This document shows, one piece after another, positions 14,647-26,981 of a DNA stretch of 64,000 nucleotides; the first letter of the stretch is position 1; the number at the start of each line of letters is the position of its first letter. Below the pieces are notes generated by a model that worked only from the letters and a program-made list of their open reading frames with translations, ran no database searches and was not told where the DNA came from. The stretch is from a virus. The translations under genes were made by a program, and so were the position numbers. The DNA is taken from the IMG/VR virus record IMGVR_UViG_3300036987_000083, positions 115,490-179,489 of that record. One strand, written 5' to 3'.

Positions 14647-15045
14647 ATGAGGAAATGCAGTCGGTGTGAGAAGACACGGAGAGCGAATTCTTTTGGCAGG
14701 CATCACTGGTGCCTGCCCTGTTGCAGAGAAGTCCAGGCAGAGCGGGTCAAGAGGAATCCAGAAGCGGAACGTCAGAGAGTGAAAGAGGCTCAGAAAAAAG
14801 CCAAAGAAAGAAACCGAAACTTTGTCGATAAGGTCAAAGACAAGCCGTGCGTAGATTGTCTAAAAAAATTCAGTTCTTGGATCATGCAGTTCGACCACCG
14901 AGGCGAAAGTAAGAAAGAAGCAGATGTATCGGTTCTTGTTCACAAAGGTTCATCTCTCAAGAGAGTTAAGCGAGAAGTTCTAAAATGCGATGTTGTTTGC
15001 GCGAACTGTCACGCAGACAGAACACACAGAAGACGACTTGAGTGA
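14647..15045 (+). CDS. HNH endonuclease; stop lies inside tRNA-Tyr
   Basis: CVDC..FDHR..KCDVVCANCHADRT. Confidence 0.85.
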   Translation: MRKCSRCEKTRRANSFGRHHWCLPCCREVQAERVKRNPEAERQRVKEAQKKAKERNRNFVDKVKDKPCVDCLKKFSSWIMQFDHRGESKKEADVSVLVHKGSSLKRVKREVLKCDVVCANCHADRTHRRRLE

Positions 15046-15125
15046 GACGTGGCCATTGGCGGCCCACCAGACTGTAAATCTGGCCTCCTTCGGGATACCG
15101 GTGGGTTCGATTCCCACCTCACTCA
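15040..15125 (+). tRNA. tRNA-Tyr(GTA)
   Basis: GAGTGAG/CTCACTC acceptor; CCAGA-CTGTAAA-TCTGG; long variable arm. Confidence 0.85.
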
Positions 15126-15231
15126 CAGAGTTTCAGCAGGACGGACCATCTGGGTCTCTCCGGGTACCTGATAACAGAATAGCAGTGGTGTAGGGGTGGG
15201 GCTCTGGTTGTTGAAGAGTCCTGCCCCGAAT

Positions 15232-15304
15232 GCCCCCTTAGCTCATCTGGTAGAGCACCGCTTTCGTAAAGCGGGGGTGACCCGTTCAAGTCGGGTAGGG
15301 GGCT
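15232..15304 (+). tRNA. tRNA-Thr(CGT)
   Basis: Cloverleaf; CCGCT-TTCGTAA-AGCGG. Confidence 0.9.
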
Positions 15305-15353
15305 CTTTAAGTTGTCAGTAACATAAGCTTCAAGTCGTAAGCAGAGAAGCAAC

Positions 15354-15426
15354 GGGTATGTAGCTCAATTGGTAGAGCAACCGCCTCTTAAGCGGTAGGT
15401 TGGGGGTTCAATTCCCCCCGTACCCA
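15354..15426 (+). tRNA. tRNA-Lys(CTT)
   Basis: Cloverleaf; ACCGC-CTCTTAA-GCGGT. Confidence 0.9.
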
Positions 15427-15505
15427 CTTAGTAGTCCAACCCGTAGAGCAACATATGGAGGCAGGCATGAGTACAAGCAAACGTAGCTGTGACACGCAAT
15501 GTTCT

Positions 15506-15577
15506 GCGTTCATAGCTCAGCGGTAGAGCACCCGCCTTTTAAGCGGAGGGTCCTGGGTTCGATCCCCAGTGGACGCA
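15506..15577 (+). tRNA. tRNA-Lys(TTT)
   Basis: Cloverleaf; CCGC-CTTTTAA-GCGG. Confidence 0.9.
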
Positions 15578-15589
15578 CAATCCAGTTTC

Positions 15590-15667
15590 AACGAGGCGCT
15601 GCTTCGGGTTACTTCTCTTGAAAAGAATTCCGGGAAACCGGGAACCTGGGGTGCAACATCTTCGTTG
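15590..15667 (+). ncRNA. Small RNA family X, copy 1
   Basis: AACGAGG/CTTCGTT terminal stem; shared CG..TACTTC..AAGAAT..AT core. Confidence 0.55.
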
Positions 15668-15688
15668 GTTCTTTTAGTAATGTTTTGC

Positions 15689-15770
15689 GGCGAGGCGTAA
15701 TCTGGGGTTCCTTCTTTAATGGAAAAGAGTCGCTGGGAAACCGGCAAACCTTGGGTAAGTATCCTCGCTG
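15689..15770 (+). ncRNA. Small RNA family X, copy 2
   Basis: GGCGAGG/CCTCGCT terminal stem; CTGGGGT/ACCTTGG; same core. Confidence 0.55.
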
Positions 15771-15774
15771 TTTT

Positions 15775-15846
15775 GCGGCCATAGTTCAGTGGTAGAACGC
15801 TAGCCTTCCAAGCTGGATGTCGAGGGTTCGAATCCCTCTGGCCGCT
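15775..15846 (+). tRNA. tRNA-Gly(TCC)
   Basis: Cloverleaf; CTAGC-CTTCCAA-GCTGG. Confidence 0.9.
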
Positions 15847-15875
15847 CTGCAGTAAACGACCACATGGTCGCGTCT

Positions 15876-15961
15876 GGAAAGTAAATCAGACATGGGTCTG
15901 AGCCTGGGTGCTAACCAGTGCGCACCTTCCGGGGTGTGGGGATCGAGACCTCTGCTTTCCG
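15876..15961 (+). tRNA. 8/4 allo-type tRNA-Ser(GCT)
   Basis: 8-bp acceptor GGAAAGTA/TGCTTTCC; 6-bp D stem TCAGAC/GTCTGA; long V arm; 4-bp T stem; loop GTGCTAA. Confidence 0.7.
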
Positions 15962-15967
15962 CTTAAC

Positions 15968-16042
15968 GGTCACGTAGCTCAGTTGGATTAGAGCACTCGC
16001 CTACGAAGCGAGCGGTCGGGGGTTCAAGTCCCTCCGTGATCA
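15968..16042 (+). tRNA. tRNA-Arg(ACG)
   Basis: Cloverleaf; CTCGC-CTACGAA-GCGAG. Confidence 0.9.
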
Positions 16043-16056
16043 CTGAAGCGCTGTTC

Positions 16057-16128
16057 GCGGGCATAGCTCAGAGGCAGAGCGCCAAGTTCCCATCTTGGAT
16101 GCCGAGGGTTCAATTCCCTCTGCCCGCT
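16057..16128 (+). tRNA. tRNA-Gly(CCC)
   Basis: Cloverleaf; CCAAG-TTCCCAT-CTTGG. Confidence 0.9.
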
Positions 16129-16154
16129 CTGTAAAGGCAAAGGCAGCTCAATGC

Positions 16155-25135: not shown

Positions 25136-25136
25136 T

Positions 25137-25210
25137 GCTCTCGTCGTCTAGTTGGATAAGGCCTCCGTTTCCTAAACGGATGATCGCAAGTTCGAATCTT
25201 GCCGAGAGCG
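25137..25210 (+). tRNA. tRNA-Arg(CCT)
   Basis: TCCGT-TTCCTAA-ACGGA. Confidence 0.9.
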
Positions 25211-25272
25211 CTATGGGTGGGGGAGCCCATAACGACGTTGACAACAAGTTGTGCAACAGGTACTATCACTGT

Positions 25273-25346
25273 CGCGGGGTGGAGCAGCCAGGTAGCTCGT
25301 TGGCCTCATAAGCCAAAGGTCGCAAGTTCGAATCTTGCTCCCGCAA
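25273..25346 (+). tRNA. Initiator-like tRNA-fMet(CAT)
   Basis: CGCGGGGTGGAGCAG start; C1:A72 mismatch; loop CTCATAA. Confidence 0.85.
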
Positions 25347-25399
25347 CTTCAAGCAGGACCGGTAGGTGGCGCGTCGGACTGCCCACCTAGTGTCTTTCT

Positions 25400-25472
25400 C
25401 GTGATGTCGCCAAGTGGGAAGGCAGCGGTTTCATAATCCGCAACTGAGGTGGTTCGATTCCACCCATCACGA
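25400..25472 (+). tRNA. tRNA-Met(CAT)
   Basis: CGTGATG/CATCACG; loop TTCATAA. Confidence 0.8.
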
Positions 25473-25479
25473 CTGAGTG

Positions 25480-25652
25480 CTGTGAGCGCATCACTCGCCT
25501 CAAAAAGGCGCTCCGACATCACAGTGGTACGAGAGTCTGAGTCTGTAGCGAGTCCAAAGGGCTCCGAGCGCAGTGATGCCTCGGCAAGTGGCGACACTTG
25601 GTGACACGGCCAGCCACGCGAAAGGACGCTCGTCGTCGTTAAACGCTGTACC
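25480..25652 (+). ncRNA. Structured intergenic RNA with a possible pseudoknot
   Basis: CTGTGA/TCACAG; loop GCATCACT complementary to downstream AGTGATGC; CAAGTG/CACTTG. Confidence 0.4.
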
Positions 25653-25659
25653 TTTTTCT

Positions 25660-25730
25660 GCCCGCGTAGCTCGAAGGTCGAGCGTCCCTTTCACATGGGG
25701 AAGGCGACGGTTCGATTCCGTCCGTGGGTA
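25660..25730 (+). tRNA. tRNA-Val(CAC)
   Basis: TCCCT-TTCACAT-GGGGA. Confidence 0.85.
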
Positions 25731-25745
25731 CTGAGGAGCTTCTCT

Positions 25746-26000
25746 ATGGATAAGAATGCGCTGGCCATGTACCGACGATTTTGCAGAAATGCTGAGCGTC
25801 TATACCTCAAGGAGTACCCCCTAAAGCAGTATGATGCGGACCTGCGGGCTTGTTTCCACGAGCAGCTCGCTCACGCGGGCGTTGCTGGAGAGAAATTGAA
25901 CTCCGCCATCTGCTACGTGCCCGGAGGGCTCATCCTGAAGTTTGAAACAAAGGAGGTCGCTTTTGAAGACCTTTTCGACGCGAGGTGTGCAGCAGAATAA
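25746..26000 (+). CDS. Small hypothetical protein
   Basis: GAGGAG SD before ATG. Confidence 0.5.
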   Translation: MDKNALAMYRRFCRNAERLYLKEYPLKQYDADLRACFHEQLAHAGVAGEKLNSAICYVPGGLILKFETKEVAFEDLFDARCAAE

Positions 26001-26086
26001 GCTCGGGTGGCGGAACTGGTAGACGCGCTAGATTCAGGGTCTAGAGGGGGGCAACCCCCGTGAGAGTTCGATTCTCTCTCCGAGCA
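26001..26086 (+). tRNA. tRNA-Leu(CAG)
   Basis: CTAGA-TTCAGGG-TCTAG; long V arm. Confidence 0.9.
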
Positions 26087-26123
26087 CTTGACAACCGCAG
26101 TCCTGGTGGTGTAGAAGCGCCGA

Positions 26124-26390
26124 ATGGAAGGCCGGTACGAAGCCGCAAGCAGGACCTACGAGATGTTCTTGGGGTTCGCGAAGGAGCTTAAGGTTCCTAG
26201 CACTGTCGGCCAGCAGCATCCTCCCAATGGAGCGCATAGGGAATCGTATTTCGTTCCCAGCGACATCGTCATGTTCGACTACGCTTACCTTCTTAGGGCA
26301 CCAGACGCTGGCTGCTCCAATGAAGATGTTCATCAGTTCGATTCAACAGGTAGATGTACGGTTTGTGGATCACACCGCAGACCCGCTTAA
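26124..26390 (+). CDS. Small hypothetical protein
   Basis: ORF after TTGACA box at 26088. Confidence 0.45.
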   Translation: MEGRYEAASRTYEMFLGFAKELKVPSTVGQQHPPNGAHRESYFVPSDIVMFDYAYLLRAPDAGCSNEDVHQFDSTGRCTVCGSHRRPA

Positions 26391-26396
26391 TGTAAT

Positions 26397-26480
26397 GCTC
26401 CGGTGGCGGAATTGGTAGACGCACCAGCTTGAGGGGCTGGCGACCGAAAGGTCATAGGGGTTCGATTCCCCTCTGGAGCA
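26397..26480 (+). tRNA. tRNA-Leu(GAG)
   Basis: CCAGC-TTGAGGG-GCTGG. Confidence 0.9.
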
Positions 26481-26492
26481 CAGAAAGGAATT

Positions 26493-26897
26493 ATGAAGCA
26501 GGAAACTTACCGGTCACCTTGGTTTGATCTTGAAGGGTGCTTGGCCTGTACGGTCAAATATTCGGACGGTTCAAAGGGTACTGTTCTTCAACACCGGGAA
26601 GTTATGGAGCAAGTTCTCGGTCGTAAGTTGAAGCCGCAGGAACTGGTGCATCACAAGAATAGCAACAAGCGGGACAACTCGCCTACCAATTTGAAGATCA
26701 CTTCCAGACCTGCGCACGCCGCCGAGCACGCCAAGACTAGGGTTCCCGAGCTTCTAGAAGTAACCTGTTTGGAGTGTGGAAAGACTTCGCTGAAGCTAGC
26801 TAGGCAAGTAAGGCACAACCAAATTGGTCAACAAAAGCCTGGTCCTTTTTGTGGTCGAAGTTGTGCTGGTAGATTTAACGGACGTAAACGTATTTGA
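26493..26897 (+). CDS. HNH endonuclease (HNH_3 type); stop abuts tRNA-Leu
   Basis: LQHREVME..LGRKLKPQELVHHKNSNKRDNSPTNL. Confidence 0.9.
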   Translation: MKQETYRSPWFDLEGCLACTVKYSDGSKGTVLQHREVMEQVLGRKLKPQELVHHKNSNKRDNSPTNLKITSRPAHAAEHAKTRVPELLEVTCLECGKTSLKLARQVRHNQIGQQKPGPFCGRSCAGRFNGRKRI

Positions 26898-26981
26898 GGG
26901 CTAGTGGCGAAACTGGTAGTCGCGCCAGATTTAGGGTCTGGTGGGGGAAACCCCGTGAGAGTTCGAGTCTCTCCTTGCCCA
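26898..26981 (+). tRNA. tRNA-Leu(TAG)
   Basis: CCAGA-TTTAGGG-TCTGG. Confidence 0.9.

Follow-up and report, generated by a model that had tools for sequence, protein, structure and literature searches.

The stretch of DNA analyzed here (the window; 64,000 nucleotides (nt), positions 115,490 to 179,489 of IMG/VR virus record IMGVR_UViG_3300036987_000083) is the final 64 kb of a 179,489-bp record and has a G+C content of ≈55%. It encodes a tail sheath of 954 amino acids (aa) and, downstream of this gene, an array of transfer RNA (tRNA) genes on the plus strand, in which 40 tRNAs were called at default settings (14404–27172). Further type II tRNAs in the array (Tyr and several Ser) were called only at relaxed thresholds. 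Five open reading frames (ORFs) for HNH nucleases, denoted HNH#1 to HNH#5, lie within the array immediately upstream of a tRNA gene, and four of them have their stop codons inside that tRNA. The five genes and the tRNAs associated with them are:

14647–15045, plus strand: HNH#1, 132 aa; phrog_2255, E = 2e-21; last codon and TGA stop in nt 1–6 of tRNA-Tyr
15040–15125, plus strand: tRNA-Tyr(GTA), type II, with a non-canonical D arm; relaxed-threshold call only
17043–17390, plus strand: HNH#2, 115 aa; phrog_3106, E = 5e-24; final 7 residues and TAG stop from nt 1–23 of tRNA-Gln
17368–17439, plus strand: tRNA-Gln(TTG), 58.7 bits
20277–20645, plus strand: HNH#3, 122 aa; phrog_4234, E = 1e-33; the stop is the UAG at U8-A9-G10 of tRNA-Pro
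20636–20710, plus strand: tRNA-Pro(TGG); right edge of a 490-bp module shared with a related contig (L038)
22590–23036, plus strand: HNH#4, 148 aa; final 14 residues and TGA stop from nt 1–43 of tRNA-Ala
22994–23065, plus strand: tRNA-Ala(CGC); right edge of a block shared with a second related contig (L039)
26397–26481, plus strand: tRNA-Leu(GAG), the upstream neighbor of HNH#5
26493–26897, plus strand: HNH#5, 134 aa; Pfam HNH_3; has its own AGGA ribosome-binding site; stop flush with the tRNA
26898–26981, plus strand: tRNA-Leu(TAG), a tRNA call with nt 1 directly after the HNH#5 stop

An earlier reading of the DNA letters (the sequence-only reading) had placed the stops of HNH#1–HNH#4 at nt 4–6, 21–23, 8–10 and 41–43 of the next tRNA, respectively, and that of HNH#5 flush with nt 1 of tRNA-Leu, and the ORF and tRNA coordinates agree with this for all five genes. 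Its assignment of the five ORFs as HNH nucleases was likewise borne out: all of them match HNH families in PHROG, with E-values from 1e-12 to 1e-33 and at least three families represented, and the catalytic H..N..H/CxxC motifs are visible in each. In several of them, the alignment covers just an N-terminal or central stretch of a longer PHROG profile. Pfam matched only HNH#5 (HNH_3), and neither Pfam nor PHROG gave a match to a GIY-YIG domain in any of the five. The downstream tRNAs are uninterrupted. The tRNA-Tyr is weak, being called neither by ARAGORN at default settings nor by Rfam at the gathering score; its support consists of a match to the Sec model (34 bits) and an ARAGORN call at -ps90.

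The tRNA-encoded tails of HNH#1–HNH#4 comprise 1, 7, 3 and 14 residues, respectively, and lie beyond the part of the protein that is conserved among homologues. Family homology stops at residue 129 in HNH#4, where the tRNA begins at residue 135, and at residue 116 in HNH#3, where it begins at residue 120. Judged by these alignments, the few tRNA-encoded residues are a non-conserved tail.

The window is near-identical to contigs from groundwater and coal metagenome runs, and the phages collected in GenBank included no near-identical one. Among named phages, Myxococcus phage Mx1 is the closest; in it, too, a 954-aa sheath gene is followed by a tRNA array, and by this comparison the window phage is a distant relative of Mx1. 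The two share nearly no nucleotide identity, so that insertion edges could not be read from Mx1. Two related metagenomic contigs, L038 (3,248 nt) and L039 (8,500 nt), were compared with the window at the DNA level, while two further relatives, from ENA (10,223 nt) and Logan (5,002 nt), are known from their gene maps alone. A relative of ≈90% identity was evident in contigs of four DNA metagenome runs; the joints in these contigs were mostly cross-matches between tRNAs of other organisms, and were disregarded. Among the public runs searched, no RNA run carried window sequence.

Overlap with the downstream tRNA in HNH and other genes

To compare HNH genes with other genes, the overlap was expressed as the number of ORF bases, stop codon included, that lie inside the next tRNA on the same strand. 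In the window, four of the five HNH ORFs overlapped their tRNA, compared to one of the six other ORFs that abut a tRNA (Mann–Whitney p = 0.009). In GenBank phages picked by hit rank, there was overlap in 3/6 HNH ORFs and 2/21 others, the latter being PHROG-supported and including two window ORFs. Among contexts of the HNH#4 family, picked by match rank or contig size, three of nine overlapped. An unselected set was obtained from IMG/VR, consisting of loci from two scans with near-duplicates counted once. Here, 19 of the 24 HNH ORFs located just upstream of a tRNA overlapped it (79%), compared to 7 of 32 others (22%; p = 2e-5). When the external sets were pooled, the counts were 25/39 for HNH ORFs and 9/53 for non-HNH ORFs (p = 4e-6). 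We conclude from these counts that overlap is a property of HNH genes beside tRNAs, beyond dense packing.

The overlapping “non-HNH” ORFs include two families, phrog_5018 and phrog_2072, that may be mobile genes specific to arrays in their own right. In the window, the 114-aa ORF at 16668–17012 belongs to phrog_2072, a family specific to tRNA arrays with >7,800 homologues. In other phages (IMG/VR loci L057, L072, L079 and L080), its members are wedged between tRNA-Arg genes, and the position of the stop with respect to the following tRNA is 0, −1 or +10 nt. Two members of phrog_5018 overlap the next tRNA, one by 22 nt (L016:14092–14472, Streptomyces phage Navo) and the other by 10 nt (L149:673–1185), and phrog_5018 may be an unrecognized mobile gene family of the same habit.

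Source of the stop codons

For 272 phage tRNAs, the first in-frame stop was recorded in a total of 816 entering frames. The TAG at nt 8–10 (U8-A9-G10) was the most frequent and accounted for 16% of the frames; stops near nt 15 and nt 21–24 ranked after it. Within 25 nt, 45% of the frames were closed, and one third were never closed inside the tRNA. The observed overlaps, which are 6, 10, 23 and 43 nt in the window and mostly 10, 15 and 23 nt elsewhere, fall at these default stop positions. The HNH ORFs borrow stops that the 5′ halves of tRNAs carry anyway.

Exchange of nuclease–tRNA modules between relatives

Partial copies of tRNA genes are found at three places close to the HNH genes:

17441–17464, plus strand: orphan copy of nt 47–70 of tRNA-Gln (T arm and 3′ acceptor strand), 92% identical, directly behind the intact tRNA-Gln
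20221–20273, plus strand: 5′ remnant of an older tRNA-Pro(TGG) that comprises nt 1 to ≈53 and breaks off where the T stem begins; its AGAGG is 6 nt ahead of the HNH#3 ATG, and the exchanged HNH#3 module has its left edge here
22524–22553, plus strand: 5′ remnant (nt 1–30) of tRNA-Ala(GGC), 97% identical to the intact copy at 22234; upstream of HNH#4

Two of the breakpoints thus lie at the T arm, namely at the start of the T stem (Pro remnant end) and at nt 47 (Gln fragment start), and the third at nt 30 (Ala remnant end). Two more orphan fragments of T arm and 3′ acceptor strand, at 17937–17964 and 24033–24070, are located just behind the intact tRNA-Asn and tRNA-Thr(GGT), respectively, and are debris of tRNA-gene rearrangement.

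The Pro remnant, HNH#3 and tRNA-Pro(TGG) together form a block (20221–20710) that is 93.9% identical to L038 over 490 nt without gaps. The flanking sequences are far more divergent: tRNA-Glu is 79.5% identical, tRNA-Pro(GGG) 72%, tRNA-Pro(CGG) 70.7% and the next ORF 72.9% (block versus flanks, p = 2e-18). The HNH#3 protein of L038 is 93% identical and ends in the same ...KNGV tail before the stop. With a nonsynonymous to synonymous ratio (pN/pS) of 0.25 relative to L038, HNH#3 is under purifying selection. A similar picture is seen for HNH#4 and tRNA-Ala(CGC), where the block at 22553–23072 has six differences from L039 in 520 nt (98.8% identity), compared to 88 differences in 737 nt on the left (88%; p = 3e-15) and 20 in 80 nt on the right (75%; p = 4e-14). 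All four nucleotide differences within the HNH#4 gene are synonymous, and the protein is identical. Both high-identity blocks stop at the 3′ end of the tRNA, which argues that nuclease and tRNA were exchanged together. By these alignments, the nuclease, the downstream tRNA and the upstream tRNA remnant of both HNH#3 and HNH#4 were exchanged between lineages as one piece, with tRNA sequence at its edges.

HNH#5 differs. In L039, tRNA-Leu(GAG) and tRNA-Leu(TAG) are separated by 7 nt (AGAGTAT) and HNH#5 is absent. The tRNA-Leu(TAG) is therefore a landing site rather than cargo, and, by this alignment, HNH#5 is a plain insertion into the 7-nt spacer between two Leu tRNAs. The proposal of the sequence-only reading that each nuclease moves as one unit with its cargo tRNA therefore held for HNH#3 and HNH#4 (93.9% identity against 70–80% in the flanks, and 98.8% against 75–88%) and failed for HNH#5. 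HNH#3 and HNH#4 were present in the relatives whose DNA was read. The ENA relative has other ORFs in place of HNH#2, according to its gene map.

The tRNA-Pro(TGG) at 20636–20710 shares 85–89% identity with the tRNA-Pro genes at L015:2709–2784, L017:6799–6874 and L014:1853–1930, which come from Streptomyces phage Navo, from Mx1 and from Stenotrophomonas phage Marzo, and only ≈70% with the other tRNA-Pro genes of the window. By sequence, it looks like a widely shared phage tRNA-Pro type. The comparison with Mx1 is too distant to decide whether the Pro remnant represents the resident lineage and tRNA-Pro(TGG) an import.

The same geometry in other phages and bacterial contigs

The arrangement is widespread, and HNH genes overlap the downstream tRNA in several unrelated phages: by 24 nt in Marzo (on tRNA-Pro(TGG)), 32 nt in Crossroads, 15 nt in iF6, 14 or 15 nt in crAss001, 10 nt in YF01 and 23 nt in Mx1. 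The overlap between coding sequence and tRNA is visible in the public GenBank annotation of Marzo, crAss001, Crossroads and YF01. The HNH homologues in Mx1, LucasX and iF6 are unannotated. In Enterococcus phage iF6 (MT909815.1), GenBank places the tRNAs on the strand opposite to that found by Rfam and ARAGORN, and on the Rfam/ARAGORN strand the unannotated HNH ORF of 182 aa overlaps tRNA-Thr(TGT) by 15 nt. An overlap in the GenBank annotation of Salmonella phage FSL SP-107 was not reproduced, as both ARAGORN and Rfam put the next tRNA 13 nt past the stop. There are also near-flush cases in which the stop is kept outside the tRNA, at −2 and −7 nt in LucasX and at −4 to −26 nt in several relatives of HNH#4.

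Genes of the HNH#4 family, which are ≈150 aa in length, were found mostly in bacterial-looking contigs, often beside release-factor (PCRF/RF-1) genes (metagenome and metagenome-assembled genome contigs L031–L037). In all nine contexts, the gene was located ≤66 nt upstream of a tRNA, which was tRNA-Thr in eight of the nine, and two of the genes use the TAG at nt 8–10 of the tRNA as their stop. In the phage contig L029, 2 nt separate an intact tRNA-Ala(GGC) from the start of the HNH#4 homologue, whose end lies 15 nt into tRNA-Thr.

Origin of the overlap

We consider it probable that the tRNA array has been colonized by the five ORFs as free-standing homing-endonuclease genes of the HNH class, and that the overlap mainly reflects how such elements are constructed and inserted. 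A single transcript probably covers the array, in which promoter-like and terminator-like sites are not in excess, and this suggests that the HNH genes are read from the tRNA precursor. The HNH genes are minimal, having neither a terminator nor a 3′ untranslated region. Each frame continues as far as the following tRNA, where the first stop in the conserved 5′ half ends it, most often the UAG at U8-A9-G10, otherwise a UAG in the D loop or another stop. In the HNH#3 and HNH#4 modules, the remnant of an older tRNA for the same amino acid is followed by the HNH gene and then by a complete tRNA, and these modules were recently exchanged as units between related phages. By analogy with SegB, a homing endonuclease of phages T4 and T6, the enzyme may cut the tRNA gene or the junction between two tRNAs in a naive genome, whereupon repair would copy both the nuclease and the intact tRNA, using tRNA sequence as homology arms and leaving remnants behind. 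A likely side effect in four of the five genes is that cleavage by RNase P would separate the ORF from its stop codon. Such removal of the stop is plausible, and follows from the geometry only if the HNH genes are co-transcribed with the tRNAs.

Several observations weigh against this interpretation. The partner tRNA varies among homologues, so that a fixed pairing of nuclease and tRNA is not general: the HNH#1 family adjoins Tyr in the window, Lys in Mx1 and a wide range of tRNAs in IMG/VR, and the HNH#3 family adjoins Pro, Leu, Gln or Met. Some non-HNH ORFs in the IMG/VR set overlap as well (the 7 of 32, including a phosphoesterase and members of phrog_2072 and phrog_5018), the surveys are of modest size and contain some related loci, and the tRNA starts given by ARAGORN are uncertain by ≈1 nt. 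At the DNA level, the comparison with relatives covers HNH#3, HNH#4 and HNH#5, and the block around HNH#4 has a blurred left edge. Finally, the case for co-transcription is the lack of consensus promoter- and terminator-like sites, and the homing and cleavage step of these HNH enzymes is presumed from the behavior of SegB.

The overlap could instead be a chance by-product of dense packing, in which any gene wedged between tRNAs would run into the next one and the nuclease would be irrelevant. Spacers in the array are indeed tiny (30% of those between tRNAs on the same strand are ≤20 nt), and non-HNH genes abut tRNAs too: the C39 peptidase gene ends 1 nt, the ORF at 25746–26000 0 nt and the ORF at 21812–22228 5 nt before a tRNA (tRNA-Ala in the last case), while a minority of the IMG/VR non-HNH ORFs overlap. 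However, these genes typically stop just short where HNH genes run in, as reflected in the 79% versus 22% in IMG/VR and in the Mann–Whitney test within the window, and the HNH#4 family sits directly 5′ of a tRNA even in bacterial contigs without a dense array. We regard packing as very unlikely. A different possibility, going back to the sequence-only reading, is that the arrangement is a selected throttle on expression, in which RNase P cleavage would leave a non-stop mRNA subject to tagging by transfer-messenger RNA (tmRNA) and decay, limiting a toxic nuclease to a short burst from the unprocessed precursor. The geometry of four of the five genes fits this, as does the lack of excess promoter- and terminator-like sites in the array; HNH-specific enrichment is what selection on a toxic gene could produce, the overlaps lean toward short ones (10/19 are ≤10 nt, compared to 33% expected; p = 0.06), and tmRNA-like sequences occur in the same arrays (in Marzo by ARAGORN, and as a sub-threshold permuted tmRNA at 23292–23367 in the window). 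Yet the insertion geometry and module structure already account for the pattern. Moreover, the flush and near-flush genes (HNH#5, LucasX at −2 and −7, and many relatives of HNH#4 at −4 to −26) occupy the same position but would not lose their stop codon, and a throttle can therefore not be the whole reason for the overlap; an mRNA ending 0–7 nt past its stop after RNase P cleavage would be nearly as exposed, so that overlap is not required. Nor could polyadenylation complete a stop, since added A residues make no in-frame stop at any of the four junctions (...CTT, ...CTGA, ...AAAAA and ...GTAAG). We regard a selected throttle as unlikely.

The overlaps might also be scars of segmental amplification driven by the nuclease, in which recombination at microhomology shared by the nuclease gene’s 3′ end and a tRNA’s 5′ end generates tandem units, each a tRNA with a nuclease truncated at its C terminus, that later diverge into the arrangement tRNA(X)–HNH–tRNA(X′). 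Exactly such a junction, between SegB and tRNA-Tyr in T6, arose in the laboratory (PMC13096335). HNH genes of the window are flanked by tRNAs or remnants of the same type (Leu and Leu, Pro remnant and Pro, Ala remnant and Ala, and, less directly adjacent, Gln and Gln), same-type sandwiches are also seen in crAss001 (Gly and Gly), Navo (Lys and Lys) and L032 (Thr and Thr), and the partial alignments to longer PHROG profiles mentioned above are in line with truncation. Against this, the flanking tRNA pairs are only 63–77% identical and are thus not recent duplicates, HNH#4 is not truncated relative to a family that is ≈150 aa everywhere, and HNH#5 is a simple insertion relative to L039. The same-type sandwich, suggestive in the window and in hand-picked phages, did not hold as a general rule, as it was found in 3/21 cases in the unselected IMG/VR loci, no more often than adjacent tRNAs in general are of the same type (17%). 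Amplification scars thus seem very unlikely.

A broader version of the colonization model would hold that, in phages and some bacteria, several HNH families have independently come to live embedded in tRNA genes. The tRNA would serve as target, homology arm and co-transferred payload, with tRNA processing both releasing the mRNA from the precursor of the tRNA operon and, through loss of the borrowed stop codon, limiting its translation by non-stop rescue. We find this improbable as a whole. If true, the overlap would be a selected regulatory feature, and it would promote the turnover of tRNA genes and the expansion of tRNA families for one amino acid in phage arrays.

Neighboring nuclease cassettes and other features

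Downstream of the five HNH genes are three further nuclease or nuclease-like genes:

27524–28114, plus strand: sixth HNH gene (Pfam HNH_5/HNH), with no credible tRNA directly after it
28580–29038, plus strand: PD-(D/E)XK endonuclease (Pfam PDDEXK_5) inside a split tRNA-Ser (28457–29100); the whole cassette (≈28114–29103) is missing in L039
29221–29580, plus strand: weak HNH-like ORF at the 3′ end of tRNA-Ser(CGA); missing in L039 (window 29191–29580 compared with L039 7471–7596)

A tRNA at 28072–28159, which would overlap the sixth HNH gene, and another at 20118–20201 were called only at a very relaxed threshold and had poor folds, and were not counted. The PD-(D/E)XK cassette contains a nested tRNA-Ser. 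The insert carrying the HNH-like ORF is bracketed by a repeated CTTTCC derived from the 3′ end of tRNA-Ser. L039 lacks HNH#5, the PD-(D/E)XK cassette and the ORF at 29221 alike, at tRNA boundaries that are otherwise colinear. Rfam gave no group I intron match between 13000 and 36000, either at the gathering score or by E-value.

The array also includes a gene for a C39-family cysteine peptidase at 24638–25135 (Pfam Peptidase_C39_2, E = 2e-18), the one that ends 1 nt before tRNA-Arg(CCT). When this peptidase was used as a probe for relatives in IMG/VR, it yielded two distant loci, both without tRNAs. In the relatives (L038 1987–2874 and the ENA contig), a gene for an ADP-ribosylglycohydrolase and an ORF of 142–157 aa are located between a 79-aa ORF and tRNA-Ile; the corresponding part of the window (21213–21812) has neither. 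A YrlA (Y RNA-like) match at 16197–16305, between tRNA-Gly(CCC) and tRNA-Gln(CTG), was below threshold (39.4 bits; gathering score 69). The permuted tmRNA match at 23292–23367 (Rfam, 40.8 bits; gathering score 47) is accompanied in the region 23270–23600 by matches to beta-tmRNA and to the tmRNA T arm, and the stretch is 87% conserved in L039. ARAGORN made no tmRNA call there. The stretch may encode a two-piece tmRNA of the phage, and this would be relevant to any model that involves non-stop mRNA.

Relation to known systems and significance

The elements described here belong with the free-standing homing endonucleases already known from tRNA clusters of phages. SegB of T4 and T6 is a free-standing GIY-YIG homing endonuclease encoded in a tRNA gene cluster (PMC2330249, PMC13096335) that recognizes the T-psi-C motif in tRNA genes (PMC2330249). 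In evolved T6, microhomology junctions formed between a C-terminally truncated segB and tRNA-Tyr (PMC13096335), which implies that nuclease–tRNA fusions can arise in one step. As with SegB, the window harbors selfish nuclease genes inside a phage tRNA cluster. SegB targets tRNA genes and favors the inheritance of the nuclease along with neighboring tRNA genes, a behavior that may be extended to the window enzymes by analogy. However, SegB carries a GIY-YIG domain instead of HNH, making it a functional analogue and not a family member, and wild-type segB has not been reported to end inside a tRNA; in the window, several unrelated HNH families share the geometry, and two of the genes carry a tRNA remnant and a complete tRNA as a module. 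HNH genes are interspersed in tRNA arrays of phages and mycobacteria (PMC6582537), and those in the arrays of Marzo, crAss001, Crossroads and YF01 in GenBank are of the same gene class, in the same location and with overlaps in their annotation. The literature searched mentions HNH genes in tRNA clusters and does not discuss the overlap, its enrichment or the module structure.

Three other systems offer partial parallels. In mitochondrial tRNA punctuation, stop codons are completed by polyadenylation of a terminal U or UA. The window resembles this in having ORFs wedged between tRNAs, whose excision, if the genes are co-transcribed, would set the mRNA ends and remove or truncate the stop; in contrast to mitochondria, none of the four window junctions can be completed by polyadenylation. 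Some integrative elements target tRNA genes and make the gene whole again by a duplicated end, usually the 3′ end; they likewise leave a partial tRNA duplicate at the insertion, with one complete copy beside the remnant. Here, an integrase is lacking, the remnants (Pro and Ala) correspond to the 5′ part, and movement would presumably occur through homologous recombination during the repair of breaks. The anticodon loops of tRNAs can harbor group I introns with homing endonucleases, for example the PD-(D/E)XK enzyme I-Ssp6803I. They too associate a nuclease with a tRNA gene, and the split tRNA-Ser with its PDDEXK_5 gene at 28457–29100 resembles their layout, but no Rfam intron was found in the region searched and the five HNH genes lie outside the functional tRNA.

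A rule emerges that is simple to test: with a tRNA directly downstream, the end of an HNH gene usually lies within that tRNA, which is rare for genes of other kinds. For annotation, it means that gene callers that mask tRNAs truncate or drop such genes; the homologues in Mx1, LucasX and iF6 are unannotated. The geometry also allows the control of selfish-nuclease expression by tRNA processing to be tested cleanly in culturable phages. Large phage tRNA arrays are seen as counter-defense and codon-supply modules, and how they are assembled and reshuffled is poorly understood. Comparison of this locus with two related contigs shows that homing nucleases and single tRNA genes are exchanged as discrete modules of 490–520 bp bounded by tRNA sequence, and thereby offers a concrete account of how tRNA genes turn over in a mosaic fashion.

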